A stretch of DNA of 64,000 nucleotides from an uncultured Planctomycetota bacterium (GTDB lineage Bacteria > Planctomycetota > Planctomycetia > Isosphaerales > Isosphaeraceae). A model generated the notes under the pieces. That model saw only the letters and a list, made by a program, of their open reading frames with translations. It made no database searches and was not told the DNA's origin. Below, one piece after another: positions 7,836-27,631 of this stretch; the stretch's first letter is position 1; each line of letters starts with the position of its first letter. Location: positions 2,688,001 to 2,752,000 of the forward strand of contig CAWGMQ010000004.1 of NCBI GenBank assembly GCA_963823665.1, in the 5' to 3' direction. The position numbers were made by a program, and so were the translations under genes.

Positions 7836-8061
7836 CTTGTGCTCCCTATCTCAAAGGGACGCCGTTTTTCGCGCCATTGTGCGGTGATTGTGCATTCAGG
7901 TCGACCGTTACCATGTTGTGTCTTCTCCCGGCCGCTGGCTTGTAGCGGAGTGCTCGATGGATACCATAGGGATTGTCATCAGCAATGCTGCGCGACTGTT
8001 CAGCGCACCGCAACCAGGGTTCGTCGATCGAGAGGGCAGGTGCTCATTCGGAGATGATTCC

Positions 8062-9237
8062 ATGAGCGAAGTTCGTTTGGTCGTTCGGGAGGCTGGACAG
8101 GATTGGTCCGGAACCATTCACGGGAGCTCGGCCGATCGCGCGATCGCCGCGCTCAGTGCGGACCCCGTTACGCTAGCGGAGCTGGAAACCGCATGCGCCC
8201 GCTTCGAGAAGCCCGGTCTGAATCGCCGATTTTTGGCGAATCTTTCGGCTGGATTGTGCGATGAACCGTATGACGCCGGGCTCGTCGTCATCGATCTCGT
8301 CGCACGACTGGTCGTCGTCGATTCCACGTATTCTTCGCCGGGATCAAGCGGAGAAGTCGACTATCACAACGGAAAATGCTGTACGGACAAGAGGTTGCGC
8401 TATCATCTGGCGGACGACTGGCTGTTCGCGGGCGATCAATTCGAGTGGCCGGGATTGGCGGCAAAACGTCGGCGGGAACGCACCGCCCGGCCGCCGCTCG
8501 ACGCCCGCGCCATCTTTTACGGGCGGCCTCTGATCGAGTTCGTCGCTCGCGAAACATTCGCGGCCCACGCTCGGCGGGAAACGATCGCCTCTGCGGCGCA
8601 AGACGCGCTCAAAGAGATTCACGCGGCCTGGCTGTTGACGCCGCGCGACGACCTGGGCTGCCTCTGCCCGCGCGAGGTGGCGCTCGAACGGCACGGTCAT
8701 CTCACCTGGGATCTGCAGGATCAATCGGAACGATGGTCGCTACTGCAGAAATGCCCGCCCGCACTGGACGAATCTTCGTTCGCGTACCGCTACGGCGGCT
8801 TCGGCACGCACGAACTGGTTCAGTATTACGAACTGGTTCGCGCGTTACTCTGGTCTTGCTGGGACCGGCTCGACGAAATAGGGAAAACCCGGCCGGCCGG
8901 GAATGGGCTGGAGCTGTTCGCCGTCGGAGATTTTCTCACGAGCGAAGTCCCTCGCCTGGAGCGCGTGCGCGACAAATGGCTCGCCATGCCCGACCCGGAA
9001 TGTCATGGGCGAACGCCGCGATCCATCATCGACCGCGAGCGCACCCGGCTCCCCGAAGGGGTGTCCGGCCATGAGGCGATCGTCGACCCCGACTGCCCGT
9101 GTTGCCAAATGATGGCCGACATGCCCGGGCCGAGCTTCTGGCACCTGGATGGCTGCAATATGGATGACGACTTCGCGTTCGACATCCGCCATCGCACGCG
9201 CGAGGAATGGGAGGCGGAACAACGCGCGATCCAGTGA
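8062..9237 (+). CDS. Hypothetical protein with Cys-rich C-terminal motifs
   Basis: 391-aa ORF from MSEVRLVV (GGAGA RBS); DPDCPCCQM and HLDGCNMDDDFAF motifs. Confidence 0.7.
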   Translation: MSEVRLVVREAGQDWSGTIHGSSADRAIAALSADPVTLAELETACARFEKPGLNRRFLANLSAGLCDEPYDAGLVVIDLVARLVVVDSTYSSPGSSGEVDYHNGKCCTDKRLRYHLADDWLFAGDQFEWPGLAAKRRRERTARPPLDARAIFYGRPLIEFVARETFAAHARRETIASAAQDALKEIHAAWLLTPRDDLGCLCPREVALERHGHLTWDLQDQSERWSLLQKCPPALDESSFAYRYGGFGTHELVQYYELVRALLWSCWDRLDEIGKTRPAGNGLELFAVGDFLTSEVPRLERVRDKWLAMPDPECHGRTPRSIIDRERTRLPEGVSGHEAIVDPDCPCCQMMADMPGPSFWHLDGCNMDDDFAFDIRHRTREEWEAEQRAIQ

Positions 9238-9344
9238 TCGAGCGTTTCGCCGAATCGCTGGCCGTGGTGGCCTCGGCCCGTCCTGAGCTGTCCGCGAAGT
9301 GCGAGTCCTTGACGAACAGCCTCGCCCGGTTTTTTGAAAGATAG

Positions 9345-9419
9345 TCGGGGCGACCGGATTCGAACCGGTGACCTCCTGCTCCCAAGGCAGGCGCGCTAAC
9401 CAGGCTGCGCTACGCCCCG
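9345..9419 (-). tRNA. tRNA-Pro (TGG)
   Basis: Reverse complement CGGGGCGTAGCGCAGCCTGGTTAGCGCG-CCTGC-CT-TGG-GA-GCAGG-AGGTCACCGGTTCGAATCCGGTCGCCCCGA; full cloverleaf, CCA not encoded. Confidence 0.96.
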
Positions 9420-12030: not shown

Positions 12031-12876
12031 ATGATGAGCTCGGACAAACTCAACATGATGAACGGCGGCAACGGTCTGGTGTGCCCTGCGCTGCGCGAAT
12101 GGACGCCTGGCGGCCCAGTCTCCGGACTGGACGGGGATGAGATCGGTGTGTGGGTGGTGGAGCTGGACGCTGGGCTCGAGAGCCAGGCGGAGATTGACGG
12201 GGCAGAGCCGGGCCGTGAGCTTAAGGTGCTCGATGCGGAGGAGCGGGCGCGAGCGGCACGGTTTGTGCGGGCGCGGGACCGCAGGCGGTTTGCTCGTTGC
12301 CGATCGGCGTTGCGCGAGATACTGGGCGGCCTGGTTTGTGAGCAGCCGGAGGCGCTGCGGTTCCGAGCTGTGGCGCGGGGCAAACCCGAGCTGGATTTCC
12401 CCAACATCGACGGGAGAGAGCCGCCTGTTCGATTCAACGTCTCTCATTCATCCGAGCTCGCGGTGATTGCGGTCTGTCGCAGCCGGGAGCTGGGGGTTGA
12501 CGTTGAGCAGGTCAGGGCTATCGGCGAAGCCGAGCGGATCGTGGAATCCTTTTTCTCAGCGAACGAGCTGGCTGAGTTCGGCAGGATTGGCCCCGAGAAG
12601 AAAGCGATGGCGTTCCTCCGGGGGTGGACGCGCAAAGAGGCAATCCTTAAAGGGTTAGGCGTCGGAATCGCGGGACTGGCGGACCGTCATGAGACGGGAT
12701 TCGGGACTGGTGAGGTCACGGCTCGATTCTCTCCGGCGCTGCCGAACTGGCGCGTTGGGGCGTGGCAGCTCTGGGAGGCGTCTCCGCGCAGTGGCTTCGT
12801 GGCAACCGTTGCGTGCCGGGTGGATGCGATGGATGGCGATGCTGCAAGGACTGGGGGGCCGAATTCATGTGGTTAG
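12031..12876 (+). CDS. Sfp-type 4'-phosphopantetheinyl transferase
   Basis: GKPEL, FNVSHS, LGVDVE, WTRKEAILKGLG motifs; start uncertain. Confidence 0.92.
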   Translation: MMSSDKLNMMNGGNGLVCPALREWTPGGPVSGLDGDEIGVWVVELDAGLESQAEIDGAEPGRELKVLDAEERARAARFVRARDRRRFARCRSALREILGGLVCEQPEALRFRAVARGKPELDFPNIDGREPPVRFNVSHSSELAVIAVCRSRELGVDVEQVRAIGEAERIVESFFSANELAEFGRIGPEKKAMAFLRGWTRKEAILKGLGVGIAGLADRHETGFGTGEVTARFSPALPNWRVGAWQLWEASPRSGFVATVACRVDAMDGDAARTGGPNSCG

Positions 12877-13703
12877 TGTTCCTCGGTCTTTGCGTCCTGG
12901 CGATTTATGTCGTCATCCGCCTGATGACCAATCTGAGCGCGTGGATCACGGGTGCGCGGTATCGGGCGTACCGGCAGGTTGCGGCGCGGTATCGGGGGCG
13001 TTACGAGACGCGAGGGCTCTCCGACCCGCCAACGGTCAGTTTCACGCACAACGGCGCGACGGTGAGGGTGGGCCTGGCGCCGACGATTCAGGGCCAACCG
13101 GGCCAGATTCCACGCACTCGCGTAGTCGCGCGGTTTGGCCAGGGAATTCCGTTCCGCATGGAGCTGGCGCCGGTGGCGCGACCGGCACCGCCGCAGTCGC
13201 CGCGGGCGACCCGGCCCGTGACGACGGGTGACCGGGAATTCGACAACGGGTACGTGGTCCGGGCCAACGACGTGGAGATGTCTCGCGACTTCCTGAACTC
13301 AACGATTCGCTCCACGGTGGCCGGTTTACAGCAGTTGGTTCATCGTGGTGGGATGCTGATCTCGATCAATCCAGAGCGGATGCTCGTGCAGGTGGACCGC
13401 AATCTAGGGACGAGCACGGAGCATCTTGCGTGGGTGGTCGAGCAAGCCCTGGTGCTGCACGACCGCCTGATTGAATCGGTGACGCGGCGAATGGGCGAAG
13501 GGGTGGACATCGTCGAGGAAGCCGAATCGTGGCCGGAGGATCAGGGTACGCCCACGTGCAAGGTTTGCGGCGACCCGATTGACGAAAGTGAGATCATCGT
13601 GTGTGCATCGTGTAACACTCCGCACCATCGTAACTGCTGGGAGTACAACGGTAATGCTTGCTCGATCTATGGGTGCAACGGCAAGGTCGGTGTCAGGGAG
13701 TGA
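12867..13703 (+). CDS. Membrane-anchored protein with C-terminal prokaryotic RING finger (candidate E3 ligase)
   Basis: N-terminal TM (MWLVFLGLCVLAIYVVI); C-terminal CKVC-x11-CASC-x3-HRNCW-x6-CSIYGC at 13557-13676. Confidence 0.8.
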   Translation: MWLVFLGLCVLAIYVVIRLMTNLSAWITGARYRAYRQVAARYRGRYETRGLSDPPTVSFTHNGATVRVGLAPTIQGQPGQIPRTRVVARFGQGIPFRMELAPVARPAPPQSPRATRPVTTGDREFDNGYVVRANDVEMSRDFLNSTIRSTVAGLQQLVHRGGMLISINPERMLVQVDRNLGTSTEHLAWVVEQALVLHDRLIESVTRRMGEGVDIVEEAESWPEDQGTPTCKVCGDPIDESEIIVCASCNTPHHRNCWEYNGNACSIYGCNGKVGVRE

Positions 13704-13738: not shown

Positions 13739-14156
13739 ATGTCGAAAATGCGAGGAGCCCGGTGGCTGGCACCGGGTTTAGTTCTATTCGGTCTGCTGGT
13801 GGCCGGGGCGCCTTCGGCCGAGCCTTCGAAGGCCGAGGAGCGTCGGGAAAGCTCGACTTGAGGCGGCCAAAAAACAGTACGACGAAACCTGGGCGTACTA
13901 TCAGCAAGCCCGCATAGATTCCTATCAGGTTTATGTGTGGTCGCGCATCATGCTCGATTGCCGGCGGGAAATGGCGCCGAAGGCCGCCGACAGGCTGGTT
14001 GCGCTCGAGGAGCACCTGGCGCGGATGAAGAAGTTGGAGTCGCTGATTTCGCGGGTGCGCCGTCTGGGGTTTGGTCGTTCCTACGACGTAGGTGCTGCGG
14101 AATACTACCGATTGGAGGCAGAGCACTGGCTGGAGCTGGAACGTGCGCGTAAGTGA
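13739..14156 (+). CDS. Secreted helical hypothetical protein, frameshift near 13850
   Basis: Signal peptide MSKMRGARWLAPGLVLFGLLVAGA in one frame; helical domain ...VWSRIML...EEHLARMKKLE...EYYRLEAEHWL in another. Confidence 0.6.
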
Positions 14157-14325: not shown

Positions 14326-14628
14326 ATGTCATACGGCGGAACAGCCGATCCCAGCGGAATCCAGGTGACATTCCTGGACCAGACCGGCGCGAAGTCGGTC
14401 AAAGCGGTCATCGCCTTCAGCGTGCCCGTCAGCCGGATCATCCCCAATATCATTACCAAGATGAGTTTGCCCGCGACCAGTCCTGACGGGCAGCCGATGA
14501 GCTACTCCCTTGACCATAAAGAGGGTGGCCGGCGACTGCTTGAGAACTGGACGCTGGTTGAGGGGGGGGTCCAGAACGGCGACCACCTGATTGTGTATCC
14601 CGAGGTTGTAGCAGGACGGATTTGTTGA
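14326..14628 (+). CDS. Ubiquitin-like beta-grasp protein (YukD/EsaB-like) with C-terminal VAG-RIC
   Basis: 100 aa; 'GRRLLENWTLVEGGVQNGDHLIVYPEVVAG' parallels the ubiquitin C-terminal half ([24 protein letters not shown]); GAGGAGG RBS; next to E2/E1/JAB. Confidence 0.85.
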   Translation: MSYGGTADPSGIQVTFLDQTGAKSVKAVIAFSVPVSRIIPNIITKMSLPATSPDGQPMSYSLDHKEGGRRLLENWTLVEGGVQNGDHLIVYPEVVAGRIC

Positions 14629-14752: not shown

Positions 14753-15610
14753 ATGTATCAATCTCCTCGCATGCGCCGCCTGCGAAACGATTTGGCGGCG
14801 CTAGAACGACTTCAATCGGAAAGCAGTGTCTTTCGCTTCAAAGCCCACGGCAAGCCGGCGCATCATTTCCTTATCCATTTAGTGGGTAAGAGTTTATACC
14901 GTTTGCGCGGCCAGGTGATGGCGCACGACGACCATCGCGTCGAGATCAAGCTCGGTGCGTCGTATCCGCGCACGATCCCGGAAATCCGCTGGATCACGCC
15001 GATCTATCACCCGAACATCTCCGAGATCGGGATGGTTTGCCTGGGTGGGTATGGAACGCACTGGGTGCCGAGCGTGCAGCTCGACGAGCTGTGCAACATG
15101 CTGTGGGACATGGCGCGGTATCACAACTACGACATCCGAAGCCCTTATAACCGAGATGCAGCGCTCTGGGTTGCGAGCCAGACGAAATTCCTGTTCCCGA
15201 CTGATCCACGACCGCTGCGAGACCTTCGGGCCGCGCTGGGCCGGGTCGAGCCAGCGATGGACGCGGCATCGGGGCCCAAGCATGCGGGGGGGGACGATCA
15301 CACGAACGGCTCGTCGAATTCGACTGCGAGTGATCCGGAGGGCGGCGAAACCACGCCGACTCGGGTTCGCCAGTTCATGAATCGCTATGGCGGCATTTTC
15401 GCCAAGAGTCCAGGCCGGCGGGGCGGTGATCAAGGCGAGCGGGCCGATGATCGAGACGAGATCACCAGGCCTGCTGCAGCGGGTTCGGCGCCGATCGCGA
15501 GCGCTGCGGCCGTGCCGCAGCGAGATGACGAAGAGATCATTCTTCTCGAGTCGGCCAGTGCGGCCGATCACAGGCGTGAGGGTGTCGACGGGATCACGTT
15601 CATCGAGTAA
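14753..15610 (+). CDS. Ubiquitin-conjugating enzyme E2-like protein with disordered acidic C-terminal tail
   Basis: RRLRNDL helix, YPRTIPEIRWITPIYHPNISEIGMVCL (HPN triad, catalytic Cys codon 15038-15040), HWVPS, SPYNRDAA. Confidence 0.92.
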   Translation: MYQSPRMRRLRNDLAALERLQSESSVFRFKAHGKPAHHFLIHLVGKSLYRLRGQVMAHDDHRVEIKLGASYPRTIPEIRWITPIYHPNISEIGMVCLGGYGTHWVPSVQLDELCNMLWDMARYHNYDIRSPYNRDAALWVASQTKFLFPTDPRPLRDLRAALGRVEPAMDAASGPKHAGGDDHTNGSSNSTASDPEGGETTPTRVRQFMNRYGGIFAKSPGRRGGDQGERADDRDEITRPAAAGSAPIASAAAVPQRDDEEIILLESASAADHRREGVDGITFIE

Positions 15611-15721
15611 CGTGAGACGCCGTGCGCCGTTGTGGGTGGATGCGATTGCGGAATTTCGCGCCGGTCACTCGCGCGACGGGGGACGGCCGGTGAATTCAAC
15701 GGGCCGCGGCGAGGAGTCGTG

Positions 15722-16984
15722 ATGGCGGACGAGCGACCCATGGAATCAACCGGTCAAGCTCCGGCTCCCGGGGCGACCGGCGCCGGGCAGGGAGCGGAAG
15801 GCAATGCCCTTGCCAGTCCCATGGTCATCGACGACCAGGACCGGTACAGCAGCCTTCGATTGATCTCGTGGTGGCGGCAGGATCGGCTGCGCTCGGCGAG
15901 CGTGCTCGTCGTCGGCGCCGGGGCTCTGGGCAATGAGGTCATGAAGAACCTGGCTCTGCTCGGATTGGGGACGATCTACCTGGTCGACTTCGATACGATT
16001 GAAGCCTCAAATCTTTCGCGATCGGTTTTATTTCGCGATTCGGACGCCGGGCGCCCCAAGGCGATGGTGGCCGCACAGCGGGCGCGCGAGCTCAATCCGG
16101 AGGTGACGATCATACCGATTCACGGTGACGTCATCGTGGACATCGGACTGGGGCTCTTTCACGACGTTGATCTGGTGATCGGCTGCCTCGACAACCGGGA
16201 AGCCCGGCTGTGGGTGAATCGCCAGTGCTGGAAAACGGGCACGCCGTGGATCGATGCGGGCATTCAGGAGATTCAAGGGGTGGTCAAGGTTTTCGTCCCG
16301 CCGGATTCGTCATGCTACGAGTGCGCGATGACCGAGCGCGATTATCAGCTTCTCAACCGCCGGTATAGCTGCCCACTACTCTCACGCGATGAGATCCTCT
16401 CGGGCAAAGTGCCGACGGCCCCGACGATCGCTTCGATGATGGCGGCGCTTCAAGTACAGGAAGCGCTCAAGCTCTTGCACGGCATGCCGGTCGCTGCGGG
16501 ATCGGCTCTTGTGTACAACGGAGTAGCGAACCAGTTCTATTCCACGCGGTTACCGTTCCGGGACGACTGCTTGAGCCACGAGACCTACCCGGCGGCGGTT
16601 GAGCTTCCGCTGGGTCAGAAGCAGACGGTGCGGGAGCTTTTCGAGGCAGTGGGGCCACGTCTTGATGGCCGGCTGCACCTGGTGCTCGAGCGGGAGCTGG
16701 TTGTGGCGATCGAATGCCCGCGATGCGATTGGCGCAGGGAGGTGATGCGGCCGCGGGTGAAGGTGAAGTCATCGGAAGCCGAGTGCCCGAGCTGCCGGGA
16801 ACCAGCACGGCCAACGTTCGAGAGCGGCATCGAGGCGGATTCACCGCTTGTTGCTTGCTCGCTTTCGCGAGTTGGAATTCCACCTTACGATATCGTGAGG
16901 GTGGACGGGGAAAGCGAGTCGGGATTCTTCCTGCTGGCCGCTGATCGGGAAGACGGCAAGACGGGCTGGGGGTCAGGCGGTTGA
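15722..16984 (+). CDS. E1-like ThiF/UBA activating enzyme with C-terminal Zn-binding domain
   Basis: DRYS, VVGAGALGNE, DFDTIEASNLSRS, CLDNREAR, CYEC, YSCPLL (putative catalytic Cys 16370-16372), CPRC...CPSC. Confidence 0.92.
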   Translation: MADERPMESTGQAPAPGATGAGQGAEGNALASPMVIDDQDRYSSLRLISWWRQDRLRSASVLVVGAGALGNEVMKNLALLGLGTIYLVDFDTIEASNLSRSVLFRDSDAGRPKAMVAAQRARELNPEVTIIPIHGDVIVDIGLGLFHDVDLVIGCLDNREARLWVNRQCWKTGTPWIDAGIQEIQGVVKVFVPPDSSCYECAMTERDYQLLNRRYSCPLLSRDEILSGKVPTAPTIASMMAALQVQEALKLLHGMPVAAGSALVYNGVANQFYSTRLPFRDDCLSHETYPAAVELPLGQKQTVRELFEAVGPRLDGRLHLVLERELVVAIECPRCDWRREVMRPRVKVKSSEAECPSCREPARPTFESGIEADSPLVACSLSRVGIPPYDIVRVDGESESGFFLLAADREDGKTGWGSGG

Positions 16985-18387
16985 ACGGCGATGAAATCAC
17001 TTTCGGCGATGTGCGGGTTCGCGAGCCGGAGCGGCGCGCGCGGCCGGATCGGGACCGGCGATTTGCATCCGTTGCCTATGAAGTGCCGGGCGCGGCCGAC
17101 CTGCCGATCTTTCTCGATCGCCGCGCGGCGGACGCGATCGAACGGCACGCTCTCTCCGACACGTCGGTCGAGCTGGGTGGAATTCTGCTGGGCAAGGAAT
17201 GCCTCGACACGGCAACTGGACAGGCTTTCGTGTGGGTGAATCAGTCGCTCGAGGCCAAACACTACGCGAATACTCAGGCCAGCTTCACTTATACTCACGA
17301 TTCATGGGAAGAGATCACTCGAGAGCGCGACCAGCGGTTTCCGCAGTACGACATCGTCGGCTGGTATCACACGCATCCCAACTTCGGAATCTTTCTCTCG
17401 CACCACGATTTATTTATTCATCACAACTTTTTTTCACAGGCACTGCAAGTTGCCTACGTTGTTGACCCAATCAACCAGACTCGCGGTTTTTTCCAGTGGC
17501 GCGACGGCGGAATGGCGCAGGTGCAGGGTTACTACCTCACGGCGGATCGCGGCGATCGGATAGCACTGGCGAGGCTTGCGAACGACCTCGAGCAGCTTCC
17601 GAATGCGGAAGGCGGCTCGGGGGGAGCCTTTTCACCTCGCCTCGAAGCGGAGCTGATCAAGATGCTTACAAGAACTGGGCAGCGCGACGTCCATTCGCCG
17701 GTTGAGAGACTCCAGTTTGCCACTGTCTATGGCCTACTGGGGATTTTCCTCGGCGTGATGGGGCTGGCCACCGTGCTCTGGCTGAGCCAGCTTCTGGGCC
17801 AGATTCAGGCGATGAAGGAATCGATTCAGACTCGAGCGCGTGTGGACGAGGAATCAGCCGCGCGCGTGCGGCTGATGAGTGACGCTTTGCTGGAGCGAGC
17901 GGTCAAGGACCCTGTTGACTTCGTCGCGTTGTACGAGAAGAAGAAAAAAGAGCTAGATGACGTAGAGAAGCGAGCGGGAAGCTTAAGCACTTCAGTCGTA
18001 GAACTCGGGAGGGATCTGAAGCGCGAGCAGAAAGACAACGAGCGTCTGGTCAAGGAGCTTTCCGTTTCGAACGAGAAACTCGTGAAGGCCGAGGAGAAAG
18101 CCGCTGGAGCGGCGGAACTGAACTCGCGGGTTGTGGAGGTGGAAAAAGAGCGGGACACGCAGCAGCAGGAGCTCGCGGAGCTGAAGGAGCGGATAGACCC
18201 CGAAACCGGCCAAGTTGCTCTGGCAATGAAGCGCAAGCTGGATCGCACCCAATACATGATGTATGGGGGCTGGGCGTGCAGCGCGTTTCTCGGTGTCGCA
18301 ATCGCGGCCGCGTACTTCCTGCTCAAACCCGTTCCGAGCGTCCCCCTTGAGGATGACAAAGAGCGTCCCGCGCACCGGATCGAGTAA
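16981..18387 (+). CDS. JAB/MPN+ (JAMM) metallopeptidase with two TM helices flanking a coiled coil
   Basis: VELGGILLG and VGWYHTHPNFGIFLSHHD (E...HxH-x7-S-x2-D); TM ~17716-17785 and ~18252-18325; TTG start overlaps E1 stop. Confidence 0.9.
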   Translation: MNGDEITFGDVRVREPERRARPDRDRRFASVAYEVPGAADLPIFLDRRAADAIERHALSDTSVELGGILLGKECLDTATGQAFVWVNQSLEAKHYANTQASFTYTHDSWEEITRERDQRFPQYDIVGWYHTHPNFGIFLSHHDLFIHHNFFSQALQVAYVVDPINQTRGFFQWRDGGMAQVQGYYLTADRGDRIALARLANDLEQLPNAEGGSGGAFSPRLEAELIKMLTRTGQRDVHSPVERLQFATVYGLLGIFLGVMGLATVLWLSQLLGQIQAMKESIQTRARVDEESAARVRLMSDALLERAVKDPVDFVALYEKKKKELDDVEKRAGSLSTSVVELGRDLKREQKDNERLVKELSVSNEKLVKAEEKAAGAAELNSRVVEVEKERDTQQQELAELKERIDPETGQVALAMKRKLDRTQYMMYGGWACSAFLGVAIAAAYFLLKPVPSVPLEDDKERPAHRIE

Positions 18388-18411: not shown

Positions 18412-19740
18412 ATGATGGGGGTTCGCAGAAACAATCGGTTGCTGCTGTGCTTCGTCACCCTTGCGGCCGTTCTTGTGGCGGCGGGGGCGTTCACGCTCGT
18501 TCGGGCGCAAACAGCCGCAGACGGTCAGCGCACCGCGTCTCGAGCCGGTGAAATTGAACCGGTACCCGTTCCGGAAGCGAGCGCGCGCGCTCTTGAGTTT
18601 TACTGGAGCGGAAACAGGCTCTGGATCCTGAATGTTGCCTGGGCAATGACGCTTCCGGGCTTGATGGCGTTTTCGGGTTTTTCTGCGCGGCTGCGGAACT
18701 TGGCAGCAAGGTTGGGGCGAGTGAGGTTCGTCACGCTTGGCCTGTACGTGCTGATGTATCTGGCGATCGTCTTCCTGGTCGACCTGCCGCTGTCTTACTA
18801 CGAAGGCTACGTGCGGCTGCATGCGTACGGACTTTCCAATCAGACGCTTGGCAAGTGGTTCGGCGATTCGGTCATCCGGTTGGCAATCTCGATGGTGGCG
18901 GGCGTCGCTCTGGCCTGGGTTCCTTATCTTTTGATTGCTCGCAGCCCGAAGCGCTGGTGGTTGTATACGGCGGTGCTCTCAGTACCGTTTCTGTTCGCGG
19001 TCATGTTGATCAAGCCAATCTGGATCGATCCGCTCTTCAATCGGTTTGGGCCGATGCACGACCTCGATCTCGAGCAGCAAATACTGAAACTAGCACGGAA
19101 GGCGGAAATTGCTGCGGACCGGGTGTTCGAGGTTGAAAAGAGCGTCGATACCAAGGCGGTGAACGCGTATGTGACGGGTGTGTTTGCGACAAAGAGAATC
19201 GTTCTCTGGGATACCTTGCTGGCCAAGCTGGACGCGCCGGAAGTGCTGCATGTGATGGGCCATGAAATGGGGCATTACGCCCTGGGACATGTGGTCCGTT
19301 CCATCGTTCTATCGGCCGGGCTCACGCTTGTTGGACTTTTCCTGGTTGATTGGGCGGGGCGCAAGCTGGTCGGCCGATTTGCAGGTCGACTCGGATTCGA
19401 GCGGCTTTCGGACGTTGCCTCGCTGCCGCTCGTGCTCTTGCTACTCGAAGTTGCGATGTTCGTGCTGACACCCGTTGCGCTAGCATACAGCCGACATCAG
19501 GAGCACGAGGCGGATAAGTACGCGCTCGATCTCGTTAGAGACAATCACTCGGGCGCCTTGTCGTTCGTGAAGTTGATGGAAACGAACCTCAGCAATCCGC
19601 GGCCGGGGCCAATTTACAAGTTTTTCCGCTCAAGTCACCCGAGCATCGGCGAACGAATTGACTTCTGCAACAGCTATCGGCCGCCGCGATCAAGCGAGTC
19701 TAAGCGGGGCGAAGAAGAGCCGCGTTATCGATCGAATTAA
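18412..19740 (+). CDS. M48 family (Ste24-like) integral membrane zinc protease
   Basis: VNAYVTG...KRIVLWDTLL, HEMGH, SRHQEHEADKYA, SHPSIGERI; multiple TMs. Confidence 0.92.
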   Translation: MMGVRRNNRLLLCFVTLAAVLVAAGAFTLVRAQTAADGQRTASRAGEIEPVPVPEASARALEFYWSGNRLWILNVAWAMTLPGLMAFSGFSARLRNLAARLGRVRFVTLGLYVLMYLAIVFLVDLPLSYYEGYVRLHAYGLSNQTLGKWFGDSVIRLAISMVAGVALAWVPYLLIARSPKRWWLYTAVLSVPFLFAVMLIKPIWIDPLFNRFGPMHDLDLEQQILKLARKAEIAADRVFEVEKSVDTKAVNAYVTGVFATKRIVLWDTLLAKLDAPEVLHVMGHEMGHYALGHVVRSIVLSAGLTLVGLFLVDWAGRKLVGRFAGRLGFERLSDVASLPLVLLLLEVAMFVLTPVALAYSRHQEHEADKYALDLVRDNHSGALSFVKLMETNLSNPRPGPIYKFFRSSHPSIGERIDFCNSYRPPRSSESKRGEEEPRYRSN

Positions 19741-23734: not shown

Positions 23735-24307
23735 TTACGGGGGTAATCCGGCATCAAGTGGGGCGCCTGCCGCCTTCTTCTCCGTCTCGGACAAATTCGG
23801 CGCTCCGGGGGACGATGGGGCGCGCGGGGCCGGATGGCCCCCCTGCGTGAACAGCGTTGGCATAAGGTAGCCGACGTAAACCCCGAAGACCGTCTCGCTA
23901 GCCCCGAGCAGCATCTTGAACTGGTCGAACGAGGAGAATCCAACACTAAATCCTTTCAACGTGACGATCAGAAAGAGGTATGCGGTGAACGAGCCGCAGA
24001 AGGCGAGGGTGAGGAATCCGAAGTCCCACGGCAACTCCCGGGTGCGGATCGCGGCGGCTTCAGGTGCCGCCTCCGCGATCGCGTCCTTGACGATCATAGT
24101 TGTGAAGCCCGCGAAGAGGGGCATTAGCAGTGCGATGGAAGTTGTGAGGTCGTTGAAGGCAAACCCGCCAATAAAGTAGAGAGCCAGCAGCCAGAAGAAG
24201 GTCAGCAAATGCGAAGCGATCATTAGCATCGTGACAATACGCTTTAGCCGCAGGAAGTCCACGTCGCACCTTCTGTCTATTATTTGGCCACTAGGGTTTC
24301 TTGTCAT
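23735..24307 (-). CDS. Hypothetical membrane protein (~4 TM)
   Basis: Hydrophobic segments; overlaps the end of the upstream gene; start uncertain. Confidence 0.55.
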   Translation of the reverse strand: MTRNPSGQIIDRRCDVDFLRLKRIVTMLMIASHLLTFFWLLALYFIGGFAFNDLTTSIALLMPLFAGFTTMIVKDAIAEAAPEAAAIRTRELPWDFGFLTLAFCGSFTAYLFLIVTLKGFSVGFSSFDQFKMLLGASETVFGVYVGYLMPTLFTQGGHPAPRAPSSPGAPNLSETEKKAAGAPLDAGLPP

Positions 24308-26098
24308 CTTTCGGCTTCAGCAGATCGTCCTTCAGCCGGACGAGAAGCTGACCCGCGAAATCGCCGAGGTTCTTGGAGTATTGCGGCTCCATGTCGCGGA
24401 AATCTTCAGTCGACTTTGGAGGAAGGATGCCGGGAGCCCATCTCCCGTCCACGATGCAAAGCAGCCTGGCACCCTGGGAAGTGGCTGCAATGATGAAGTT
24501 GATGTCAACATCCTCCCACCGGTTCTTGGTGCCGAGGATCGTGTTTTTCGCATTATTCACTCGCAGAAGGAGATAGCTCGCCTCGTCGTGGATGACGGCG
24601 ACTTTCCCGTGAAAGGTCGTCAAGTACGTGACGAGGAAGTCCCTTGCGCTCCGATAGAGGGAGGGCACGACTCCGTCGGTCGCGCTGCTCGCGAGGGCGA
24701 TTGTCGCGAGATCGTCATTCTTCAACTCGCCACCGACCGTGGCAGACATATAGATCTGTTGGTTGGACGCCCAGACCAGTCCGTTTTGCCAGGTGTAATC
24801 CGAAATCCCCCAAAAACCACTCATCCTCATCGAGACGGCCGACGGCATCGCGCCGATCGACCCCGTGAATTTGTAAAATAGACGGTTCTCAAGGCCTATG
24901 TATCTCGTCGATGGATCGACACGGGGCAATGCGTCTCGTAACGATTCTTTTACGAGGAATCGCAGTTGCAGGCCGGCCGGCACAGTGATCTCCAGCGAGG
25001 TAAAGACCCGGTCCTTCTTCAGGCCGACCGCATCGATCCAGTTCTTCGCCTGCTTCAGCCCGGCGGCGACCAGTTCGGCGTTGGGATCGGAGAGCGGCAC
25101 GACAGCTGTCCACGCAAGGTCCAGGATGGCGGGGTCTATCCCGTCCGGCGGGTCTGCGTACGCTTGTGAGAGCGTCTGGCAGAGGTAGCCTGCCCGAAGG
25201 CTCGTGCGCAAGATTCTGGAGCGAACTACTTAGCTGATTCACGGGCCTCGGCGAGTAAGCCGCTGGCAACGACATGCGGGAGGACTTCTTAGCGACGGGC
25301 TCGTCCTTGGCCTCATCGGAGGGCTTCTCCGCGGCCTTAACCTCGATGGTTTTGAGTTCCCGCCGGAGACTCTCGGTCTGCTCGCGAATTTCCCATGCCG
25401 TAAAAACGGGATATCCAATCCTGGCGCATGCAAGGTCAATTGCCTCTAGCTTCCCTTTCAATTTCGAGAGCCAGGCGGCAACTTTCGTCGATGAGTCGAA
25501 TCTCGACATTCTCCTCAGCGAACTGGAGATTCGGATTCGCCGCCTGAAATTCCTTTTCCAGGAATTCGAATTCTCTAGACAGGGGCCCGGCGAGCTCGCT
25601 CAGGTTTCCGTAGGCTTTGGACTCGTCACCGAAATCCCGGGCCAGCGACGAGTTGGGCTTGGATCTCCGGAAGTGGAGTCCAACGCTCGCGACAGGGAGC
25701 TTTGACGCGGCCCCCTAAGTGGATGGCATGTCGCCTGAGAATCGTCTTGAGGTGGCGAGCAGCCCAATCCACCGCGTCAGACGCTCGCGCCGGGCGGCCA
25801 GATCGTCCGCGGAAAAGGTCGCCTCCTTCAGTTGGCCAATCAGATTCGGAAAGACGCGCTCCGGCGGCAGACGGTCTAGGGTGGTCTCGTTAGGTGTCCA
25901 TGTCGAATGCAATACATCTTCTATCCAGTCGTTGTACAAGTAAACTTGATGGCGCAGTTCCTGCCTGGTGAGCACCAGATCAGTTTTGTCAGCCGCCCCG
26001 CAGGTCGGACACGAGAAGGCCACGGAACCGAGAATCAGAGAAAAAGCCAGAACCGTTTTATGCCCCAGCCCGATCGCTGAATGCCCCCAACTCTTCAT
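24291..26098 (-). pseudogene. Large exported hypothetical protein, fragmented over several frames
   Basis: Signal-like N-terminus (25715-26185 ORF), helical middle (24889-25509), beta-rich C-terminus (24291-25211); joining is inferred. Confidence 0.4.
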
Positions 26099-26350: not shown

Positions 26351-27631
26351 CAGGGCTGTTGACTAATTGAGGATACCCAGTTTGGCGAAGAGCGTTCGGA
26401 CTTGGGAAGCATTGCGACGAACGGACTCGGCGATGTTGGTCGCGCCAGTGATTCGAAGGAATCCGATCGCTGCATTACGCAGCGCAGCCATGATTTCCGG
26501 ACCGGACCCCTTGCGGATTCGGCTCTTATCCTCGGCGAACGTGACGTCACGCACGTAGTGGGATCGATTCTCGATGGACCAGTGGCCCCGTCCCCAAGCA
26601 AGCAAATGGCTGGCGTTGCCGAGAGCGCGGGGAACGCTGGTAATGAAATAGCGAGTCTCGTTTGAAACCTCTCCGCCTTGCTCAACCACACTCTCAATCT
26701 GCCCGACCTGAGCCACGCCGGGCCAATCCAGATACTCATTCAATGCTGTCGTTGCCTTCAAGGTGCGGCGTTCACGACGACCATGGCCCTTGTCTATGCT
26801 CGTGGTCGTGTCCTGCGCCTGTTCCCAGATTCGTCGCTGTTTAGGGGGAAAAAGCCGCCTCGGTTGATGCGTCGAAGGCGGCCTTAATATCGTTGAGGAG
26901 CGTCGGCTGGTTGTCCTTCACAAACCAAAAGTAGTGGCCGCGTGCATCGATGACCTGCTGGGAAAGATCACGCTGGCAGAACATGGCGTCGCCGGTTACC
27001 ACTCGCCCCTCCAGAACGATACCTCGGAGCAACTGAAGAGCTGTCTTGTGCTCGTTGGTCTTGTTTTCGCCGCCGTTGGGGACCTGTGTCTGAGCCAACG
27101 TTAATCCCGACTCGTGCGCTACCAAGGAGAGCAGGTGGACCGCCTTCTCGAGGCCGTCGAAGCTGCCACGAGCTGTCTTGCCATCGAGAGCAAAAGCTTC
27201 CGGCGGCGAAGGCTCGCTTGAGACTGGACGGTCCAGCAACGATTCGGCCCACCGGCTCAGAGCGTCCTCGAAGGCCTTTGGGTCTAATGCGATCAGAACC
27301 TTGCGAATGCCGCCCATCTTCGGAGGTCTGCGAGTGAAGCCAAGTCGATGCATCAGCCCGATGTCTTGGTCCCGTGCCCATTGCGCAATGGCAGAATAGC
27401 TCTTCGCACCACACATGACGGCACAACACACCAACGCAAGAATGGCCGACAGCGGATGTTGTCGGCCATGCCGACTGCGAGGATCGGGAACAACGGCAAG
27501 AAAGGAAAGAAGACTGCCGGTGGTTTGGGCTTCCATGCGATGCCTCCATGCCGAAAATCCTTGGTGTGGGCGGTTTCCATACCGATAGAACCTTTCCTAT
27601 CTGCCTCAGGCTCAATCTGTCAACAGCCGTG
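26351..27631 (-). mobile_element. ISAs1-family insertion sequence, 1281 bp
   Basis: 21-bp TIRs CAGGGCTGTTGACTAATTGAG / CACGGCTGTTGACAGATTGAG (3 mismatches); perfect 10-bp TSD CAACATCGTG at 26341-26350 and 27632-27641. Confidence 0.95.
26363..27536 (-). CDS. ISAs1 (H-repeat) DDE transposase split into two frames
   Basis: PDPR..G..HPL, ALDGKT, VTGDAMFCQ, VKDNQPTL in ORF1; DKGHGRRERR, RGHWSIEN, DVTFAED in ORF2; junction TTTTTCCCCCTAA. Confidence 0.92.

Follow-up and report, generated by a model that had tools for sequence, protein, structure and literature searches.

A predicted two-anchor membrane JAMM protease in a near-core, putative ubiquitin-like conjugation operon of Isosphaeraceae

The window analysed here is a 64,000-nucleotide stretch from an uncultured Planctomycetota bacterium of the family Isosphaeraceae (assembly GCA_963823665.1, contig CAWGMQ010000004.1, positions 2,688,001-2,752,000). 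It carries a run of genes on one strand in the order RING protein with a transmembrane (TM) segment, broken small open reading frame (ORF), YukD-like ubiquitin-like protein (Ubl), E2, E1, JAB-family JAMM protease, M48 peptidase and DinB protein. The JAB gene, the subject of this work, begins with a TTG codon that overlaps the stop codon of the E1 gene (TTGA, 16981-16984), and its product joins a JAMM protease to two predicted membrane segments set apart by a coiled-coil spacer. The strongest new point is distribution rather than a sensory role: JAB, Ubl and RING appear to be near-core and vertically inherited in one family, which departs from how this operon class has been described. The parts of the gene, in window positions, are as follows.

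16981..18387, plus strand: whole gene, JAMM protease - TM1 - coiled-coil spacer - TM2 - tail, one intact ORF of 468 amino acids
16990..17010, plus strand: N-terminal acidic/hydrophobic motif D-E-I-x-F-G-D/E, in 108/120 close listed and 65/123 distant homologues
17101..17550, plus strand: Rpn11-like JAMM/MPN+ domain, residues 41-190, with E64, H130, H132, S140 and D143
17551..17715, plus strand: two helices (190-204, 219-230) and two loose linkers (206-221, 231-239), with a predicted local distance difference test score (pLDDT) <50 in the linkers
17716..17787, plus strand: predicted TM1, residues 246-269, with GxxxG (hydropathy, conservation)
17788..18252, plus strand: heptad coiled-coil spacer, residues 270-424 (155 amino acids), with helices of ~40, 93 and 18 residues, probably periplasmic
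18253..18324, plus strand: predicted TM2, residues 425-448 (hydropathy, conservation)
18325..18387, plus strand: disordered tail ending H-R-I, in 105/120 close listed and 9/123 distant homologues

These parts and their coordinates, drawn from the ORF, hydropathy, alignment and sequence periodicity, bear out a preliminary description of this DNA that had read the gene as JAMM domain, TM segment, coiled coil, second TM segment and short tail. Counts for close homologues are taken among the 120 matches listed of 865; the named homologues, at 45-59% identity, belong to Isosphaerales or Isosphaeraceae. The distant set was gathered with the JAB domain alone against 50%-identity representatives, and its architecture counts use the 123 proteins of at least 380 amino acids among the 150 matches listed of 5088. 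The H-R-I ending is restricted to close relatives and was rejected as a universal regulatory element.

Pfam recognises the catalytic domain as JAB (PF01398, E 3.1e-9, residues 54-150), with no significant match C-terminal of it and no sensor family at E 0.1. The domain has the MPN fold, with Rpn11, archaeal Rpn11, CSN5 and BRCC36 as best Foldseek matches (E about 1e-9), and its nearest solved relatives in sequence and fold are Rpn11/PSMD14, the archaeal Rpn11 homologue, CSN5, BRCC36 and AMSH. E64 and the array H130-x-H132-x7-S140-xx-D143 are invariant both among 70 aligned close homologues and among 40 diverse ones, and the JAMM motif is carried by all 120 homologues among the matches listed; judged by its motif, the protease is catalytically intact. 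F8 of the N-terminal motif is likewise invariant, and this motif is a possible Ubl-binding strand. In the full-length AlphaFold model (pLDDT 73, predicted template modelling score (pTM) 0.44), the MPN domain spans residues 17-204 and is followed by the loose linkers 206-221 and 231-239 with helix 219-230 between them, by helices 240-307, 314-404 and 407-447, and by a disordered tail.

The TM assignments rest on hydropathy, conservation and the AlphaFold helices. Hydropathy was scored by Kyte-Doolittle in 19-residue windows at thresholds of 1.2, 1.3, 1.5 or 1.6 depending on the count. Only two windows exceed 1.2, with peaks of 2.02 at residues 248-266 and 1.85 at 430-448, and the charge-free stretches of the homologue alignment fall at 246-270 and 425-448. 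Of the 120 homologues listed, 117 have both segments at a threshold of 1.3 and 91 at 1.6, TM2 being the weaker of the two; the other three proteins end soon after TM1. The GxxxG of TM1 is kept in 116/117 close and 10/12 nearer distant homologues, and a mid-membrane Gln occupies TM1 in 91/93 more distant ones. GxxxG and a mid-membrane Gln are helix-packing signals, so TM1 is likely to associate with another copy of itself or with a partner.

The architecture is conserved. All 39 extracted genome orthologues are intact with two TM segments at a threshold of 1.5 (31 from the own family, 29 of them from the 53 matched genomes described below, and 8/8 from family f3). Among the distant matches listed, 102/123 have two segments, 1 has three, 17 have one and 3 have none. 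A tree built from a choice of 63 JAB domains unites 28 two-TM proteins with 1 one-TM protein in one clade (support 95/97), and soluble JABs of f3 and one-TM paralogues fall in separate clades; two further two-TM proteins, P0197 and P0257, lie outside the main clade with unsupported placement. The preliminary description had also raised the possibility that the JAB and membrane parts are separate genes. They are fused in 22 of the 24 full-operon loci of the own family, and the other two are frameshifted in neighbouring genes too. A split gene or artefact was rejected, as the apparent cases (L006, L008, L026 and L034, and P0023, P0071 and P0115, the last three judged at the protein level) have frameshifted or partial neighbours or end shortly after TM1. 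Six distant proteins (P0242, P0252, P0262, P0265, P0269 and P0270) carry two tandem JAB domains, then a TM segment and a long outer part.

The spacer shows hydrophobic periodicity of 3.45-3.55, indicative of heptads. The coiled coil of ~150 amino acids described at first is therefore present as a 155-residue heptad spacer, but it is not one helix: three helices are separated by hinges near residues 305-313 and 403-410. Modelled alone, the membrane module has a pLDDT of 84 and a pTM of 0.42, corresponding to confident helices with no defined packing. Foldseek with this module gave no match at E 10, and the ESM Atlas no usable match for residues 225-468; a full-length relative matched only Planctomycetota JAB clusters there. 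Oligomerisation through the heptads and the TM1 packing motif is plausible on these sequence features, and regulation of the JAB through clustering is possible.

The JAB domain is likely to lie in the cytoplasm, with the spacer outside in the periplasm and the tail inside, because a signal-like segment occurs in only 1 of 222 two-TM homologues, the Ubl and its enzymes are cytoplasmic, and a LysM domain follows the TM segment in one-TM relatives. Among 34 distant homologues chosen for a domain search, LysM follows the TM segment in 4, and TPR or HEAT repeats in 4. Export of the JAB by a signal peptide or the Tat pathway was ruled out, there being no hydrophobic N-terminal segment. Charge distribution weighs against this orientation in part: Lys and Arg before TM2 exceed those after it in close relatives (2.65 vs 1.35), whereas distant homologues show the reverse TM2 bias (56% vs 18%), and TM1 is uninformative. 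The placement of catalytic domain and coil first proposed thus stays the most likely one, as a topology that we infer in the face of a mixed positive-inside test.

The remaining components of the predicted conjugation system lie directly upstream, and a peptidase gene follows.

12867..13703, plus strand: candidate E3 with N-terminal TM segment, middle domain and C-terminal Prok-RING_1 (PF14446, E 7e-10)
14326..14628, plus strand: YukD-like Ubl whose A-G end carries a removable tail of 3 residues (PF08817, E 7e-13)
14753..15610, plus strand: E2 with HPN motif at 86, Cys 96 and a disordered tail (PF00179, E 3.6e-12)
15632..16984, plus strand: ThiF-family E1, longest ORF, the true start probably later (PF00899, E 4.2e-60)
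18412..19740, plus strand: Ste24-like M48 membrane peptidase, a frequent, non-obligate neighbour

The RING start at ATG 12867 is taken from homologues, the longest ORF starting at 12762. The E2 Cys after HPN, the nucleotide motif and Cys of the E1, the full set of RING ligands and the terminal Gly of the Ubl are all intact. Presumably, from the Pfam text for PF14446, bacterial RINGs of this class carry TM helices; both the proposed writer (RING) and the proposed eraser (JAB) of this locus have predicted membrane anchors. The disordered tail of the E2 (15500-15607) closes with an acidic-hydrophobic motif, frequently duplicated across loci L001-L124, that we take to resemble a SUMO-interacting motif (SIM). 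A strict SIM-like pattern is found in 24/32 E2 tails, several of the misses being near variants or frameshifts, and the motif could act as a non-covalent Ubl reader.

Distribution was assessed in 59 genomes of the own family (f1), each at least 90% complete. JAB and Ubl are each present in 53/59, the same six genomes being without both, and RING in 54/59. Five of the six make up genus g16 (G016, G201, G226, G269 and G362), in which all members are without JAB, Ubl and RING and keep M48; the sixth is a fragmented genome outside that genus. The JAB-Ubl-RING module is single-copy in the family, and in 6 genomes RING is retained though it lies at least 0.2 Mb from JAB on the same contig. The JAB tree recovers every one of the seven genera that have several members as monophyletic (supports 0.71-1.0). 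Median identity is 89% for Ubl, as against about 70% for E2, E1 and JAB. In its own family, the module is near-core and, by this phylogenetic pattern, vertically inherited. As nearly all genomes of one family keep the system, an everyday cellular role is suggested rather than virus defence. Genus g16 provides a natural deletion for comparison.

Several observations limit this conclusion. Outside the family the system is patchy: an orthologue is found in 8/27 genomes of f3 and in 0/54 of f5, weaker matches occur in 8/62 of f4 and 2/13 of f78 (of the paralogous kind in the two inspected), and phylum-wide 14/151 genomes match at all. The loss in g16 is a single event, so that the co-absence of the three genes counts as one observation and not five.

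Burroughs, Iyer and Aravind (2011, Mol Biosyst) reportedly predicted prokaryotic E1/E2/RING/JAB operons with YukD-like Ubls. The genes here match that class in having YukD-like Ubl, ThiF E1, UBC E2, Prok-RING_1 and JAB in one neighbourhood, and the class is cited in the available sections of four articles (PMC4197634, PMC3417536, PMC10557695, PMC7159879). The first of these, in those sections, names Planctomycetes as carriers and describes the operons as uncharacterised, of sporadic occurrence and frequently absent from close relatives (PMC4197634). Unlike the sporadic or mobile class so described, the present subtype is near-core (53-54/59) and congruent with genera, and patchy only at the level of class and phylum. 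No experimental study of the RING-containing YukD-like Ubl operon class was found in the literature searched. Nor did the search find a description of a TM-anchored or two-anchor JAMM protease, a matter of novelty on which the Burroughs papers of 2011 and 2012 and their supplements may bear; TM-anchored JABs were likewise not found in the available parts of PMC7159879, PMC8195603, PMC3239186, PMC11354881, PMC1779556 and PMC7203096. The initial contrast with soluble characterised JAMM proteases was a fair one, but membrane-anchored JABs appear from their sequences to be common in this operon class. Within a predicted operon class, the two-anchor JAB is thus a variant of the membrane JAB, in a layout that is new to the literature searched.

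The C-terminus of the Ubl bears on what the protease does. A conserved A-G either closes the protein or precedes a variable tail, and the Ubl is tail-less in 11/33 loci and in 9/24 of the own family; all nine of the latter have an intact two-TM JAB. In 7/8 f3 loci the genes comprise Ubl, E2, soluble JAB, E1, two-TM JAB, second E2 and TM-RING, and the soluble JAB has an intact JAMM motif. Because the membrane JAB accompanies tail-less Ubls and, in f3, stands beside a separate soluble JAB, it would seem to be retained for a function beyond trimming. Most simply, these patterns suggest that it takes the Ubl off conjugates close to the membrane-bound RING. In the f3 loci (L111-L118) the second E2 is without the catalytic Cys and keeps the SIM-like tail, and two of these loci have two TM-RING genes.

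On balance, the two-TM JAB is probably a membrane deconjugase, or eraser, of a vertically inherited Ubl cycle, with the rod as a scaffold. The E1, E2 and membrane-anchored RING of the operon would attach the YukD-like Ubl to proteins on the cytoplasmic side of the inner membrane, and the two-TM JAB would strip it from conjugates there. To judge from relatives, the JAB and tail would be cytoplasmic and the rod periplasmic. Where the Ubl has a tail and a soluble JAB is missing, as in the own genome, the two-TM JAB may trim that tail as well. TM1 and the heptad rod would oligomerise or pack on a partner and so position the JAB in the membrane, serving as scaffold or spacer and not as a ligand sensor. 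Two lines of published work count against this interpretation. The Bub JAB seemed not to deconjugate and is proposed, in the available text, to be mainly a maturase (PMC11601596), so that an intact JAMM motif need not mean an eraser. Such operons have also been read, in the available sections of two articles, as mobile, selfish or antiviral (PMC3417536, PMC10557695); the former proposes mobile selfish elements in which the JAB removes the Ubl, and the latter predicts an antiviral role for RING-containing operons.

The closest prokaryotic structure is the Rpn11 of Caldiarchaeum subterraneum (6FJU/6FJV/6FNN; E 1.2e-7 by profile, E 1.9e-9 by fold). This archaeon also has a complete three-enzyme cascade, in a Ub-E1-E2-RING operon, and its Rpn11 trims a short tail after the terminal Gly of pro-ubiquitin and is described as a deubiquitylase in the portion of the source available (PMC5654768). 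Unlike the two-TM JAB it is soluble and acts with a true di-Gly ubiquitin, whereas here the Ubl is YukD-like and ends A-G, and no 20S proteasome was found. That search covered the own genome (92% complete), which gave no match to a 20S proteasome or a Pup ligase. A proteasomal fate for conjugates was rejected, the sole PF00227 match adjoining an HslU-like start and reading as HslV.

In eukaryotes, the membrane-anchored cysteine proteases USP19 and USP30 and the endosomal JAMM protease AMSH, which has no TM segment and is recruited by partners, erase ubiquitin at membranes beside membrane-bound E3s. The two-TM JAB would share with them erasure at a membrane, as proposed here, with no homology outside the JAMM domain. 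A fuller version of the deconjugase reading is a housekeeping, eukaryote-like cycle in which the TM-RING writes and the two-anchor JAMM protease erases the near-invariant Ubl on the cell's own membrane proteins, SIM-like motifs of E2 and JAB act as readers, and a rod of 14-20 nm spaces or bridges invaginated membranes and confines erasure; taken as a whole, we regard this version as unlikely. If true, this would make it the first E1-E2-E3 system in bacteria to serve a core function outside defence, and a bacterial parallel of ubiquitin control of membrane proteins. The locus makes it testable whether ubiquitin-like conjugation serves ordinary bacterial cell biology. These are harmless bacteria of the environment, and cultured members of the family exist.

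The preliminary description had further taken the protein to be a transmembrane sensor. A JAMM protease tied to the membrane and acting on the Ubl of its operon is supported; the sensory part of that proposal fares poorly. According to it, the periplasmic coiled coil would detect envelope state or a ligand and switch the cytoplasmic JAMM domain, for example through oligomeric state. A catalytic domain inside, an ectodomain outside and a conserved packing motif in TM1 agree with this, as do relatives that swap LysM or TPR ectodomains in the manner of one-component receptors, and activation of a JAMM protease by clustering has a eukaryotic precedent in BRCC36. The spacer itself argues otherwise. 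It varies from 89 to 202 amino acids across distant two-TM homologues (quartiles 138-163), is undetectable by tblastn in 16/21 own-family loci, and is the fastest-evolving part of the operon, with 53% identity where the JAB has 98%. Over 19 pairwise comparisons, several of them near saturation, the ratio of nonsynonymous to synonymous substitution (dN/dS) is 0.17-1.27 for the spacer and 0.01-0.22 for the JAB, the spacer value lying up to 20-fold above that of the JAB in close pairs. No compact fold (the pTM of 0.42) and no Pfam sensor family was found in it, and the two loose linkers would uncouple the JAB from TM1. Chemoreceptors and histidine-kinase receptors differ in having an output domain after TM2; here, only a disordered, variable tail of 6-98 amino acids (median 33) follows TM2, and the enzyme precedes TM1. 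Disulphide-based sensing was ruled out, any Cys occurring in just 6/205 spacers. Structural matches of the central helix, within the top 50, are long coiled coils including tetherin, all tied at Z 7.1-7.7 and not significant; no sensor bundle was among them, although a family beyond those listed may match. In the light of the model, the rod looks more like a scaffold or spacer than a sensor that binds a ligand, and a sensory function is improbable.

Also improbable, and if anything more so, is an anti-phage or conflict system like Bil or CBASS (cyclic oligonucleotide-based antiphage signalling system), in which the Ubl would be placed on invader proteins, the JAB would license or reverse this, and the rod would be a diversifying contact surface. 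Its best support is precedent: in the available sections of one article, the characterised bacterial E1-E2-JAB systems of known role are all defensive and RING-containing ones are predicted to be so (PMC10557695). The spacer evolves fast, with dN/dS above 1 in one of the 19 pairs, and the system is patchy outside the own family, with a JAB relative on one plasmid. On that cyanobacterial plasmid (NC_019754.1; L127:4357-9575), an E1, two small ORFs, an E2 and the JAB relative stand beside a type IV coupling protein. Yet the closest and most reliable pairs give the spacer a dN/dS of 0.17-0.52, and pairwise values of this kind do not show positive selection. Near-core, single-copy and genus-congruent presence in the own family, retention of RING when unlinked, and housekeeping-type neighbours all argue against defence. 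BilC, Cap3 and BubC share the JAMM motif and act with a Ubl that has a conserved Gly and then a variable tail, according to the available text of two sources (PMC10557695, PMC11601596). Unlike the present operon, Bil, Bub and type II CBASS have no RING E3, use other types of E1 and E2, lie in defence islands or on mobile elements, and have JABs that are not integral membrane proteins. PADLOC matched the JAB at only E 1e-6 and the E1 as a generic ThiF, with no match for Ubl, E2 or RING, a result that differs from the Bil, Bub or CBASS profile.

A two-membrane tether or spacer is very doubtful. TM1 and TM2 would then sit in different sheets, as on opposite faces of a periplasmic invagination or at a budding neck, or ~10 nm apart in a single sheet, and the rod would shape the envelope and localise the protease. 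The modelled helices measure ~60, 140 and 27 Angstrom. With a straight central helix they could not fold back into a hairpin that brings the TM segments side by side; the two segments of one chain would be separated by ~10 nm within a single membrane, or by up to ~23 nm if they span two. The length band is kept while the sequence drifts (the quartiles given above), and TM2 is retained across the whole clade. A tetherin-like tether would be a parallel dimeric coiled coil anchored at each end in a different membrane, a design with which the layout and the helix arithmetic agree; the structural match is generic, none of the tied matches to long coiled coils being significant. In about 60% of close homologues, a Pro near residue 378 may bend the central helix, and a monomer model says little on the real geometry. 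Least credible is a membrane-anchored maturase that only clips the Ubl tail and does not deconjugate, as the window Ubl with a tail after its conserved Gly, an operon with no soluble JAB, the Bub precedent and a membrane-fused Ubl needing release in a paralogous operon of the own genome would allow it, but intact JABs beside tail-less Ubls (9/9) and the soluble JAB kept beside the two-TM JAB in f3 would not be expected.

A second Ubl occurs in about 12/60 own-family genomes. The paralogous system in the own genome (L050:7232-15607, L051; G000:C4 about 2,467,000-2,475,600) encodes a Ubl with a zinc ribbon and a two-TM DUF4190 domain fused after its A-G, together with an E1, a one-TM JAB, a multi-TM FHA protein, a zinc-ribbon TM protein, a RING-TM protein, a RING/TM/trypsin protein, an E2 and DUF2752; its E1 and JAB are frameshifted in G000 and whole in L051. 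The one-TM JABs of this Ubl-E1-JAB-FHA-RING-protease-E2 operon and of the JAB-TM-LysM type resemble the two-TM JAB in having an Rpn11-like JAB, a TM segment and an outer domain. They differ in their single TM segment, in an outer part made of a helical bundle, TPR or LysM, in their separate clades and in their patchy distribution.

Around the JAB gene, the M48 peptidase was rejected as an obligate part of the system comparable to endoplasmic-reticulum-associated degradation: it is present in 5/5 genomes of the system-less genus g16 and in 0/5 of a system-bearing genus, and it was not seen in the 8 f3 loci. A promoter scan of the region found none, and terminators were no commoner than chance. 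Between RING and Ubl, at 13739-14153, lies the sequence of a small helical protein whose N-terminus is signal-like; its reading frame is broken in the window and whole in L001 and L002. The protein has no Pfam match and is found in the closest relatives only. Contigs of relatives from one soil RNA library fall on Ubl, E2, E1 and JAB, mostly on Ubl (14326-14628), where many different ones gather; such contigs show neither level nor strain and were not used as support. Further out, a 449-amino-acid Cys-containing protein (7888-9237) precedes a tRNA-Pro(TGG) gene on the minus strand (9344-9419), and a 306-amino-acid protein stands with a 190-amino-acid multi-TM neighbour (23735-25211); neither the Cys-containing protein nor this pair has a Pfam match. 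A DDE transposase in two ORFs lies at 26363-27536.

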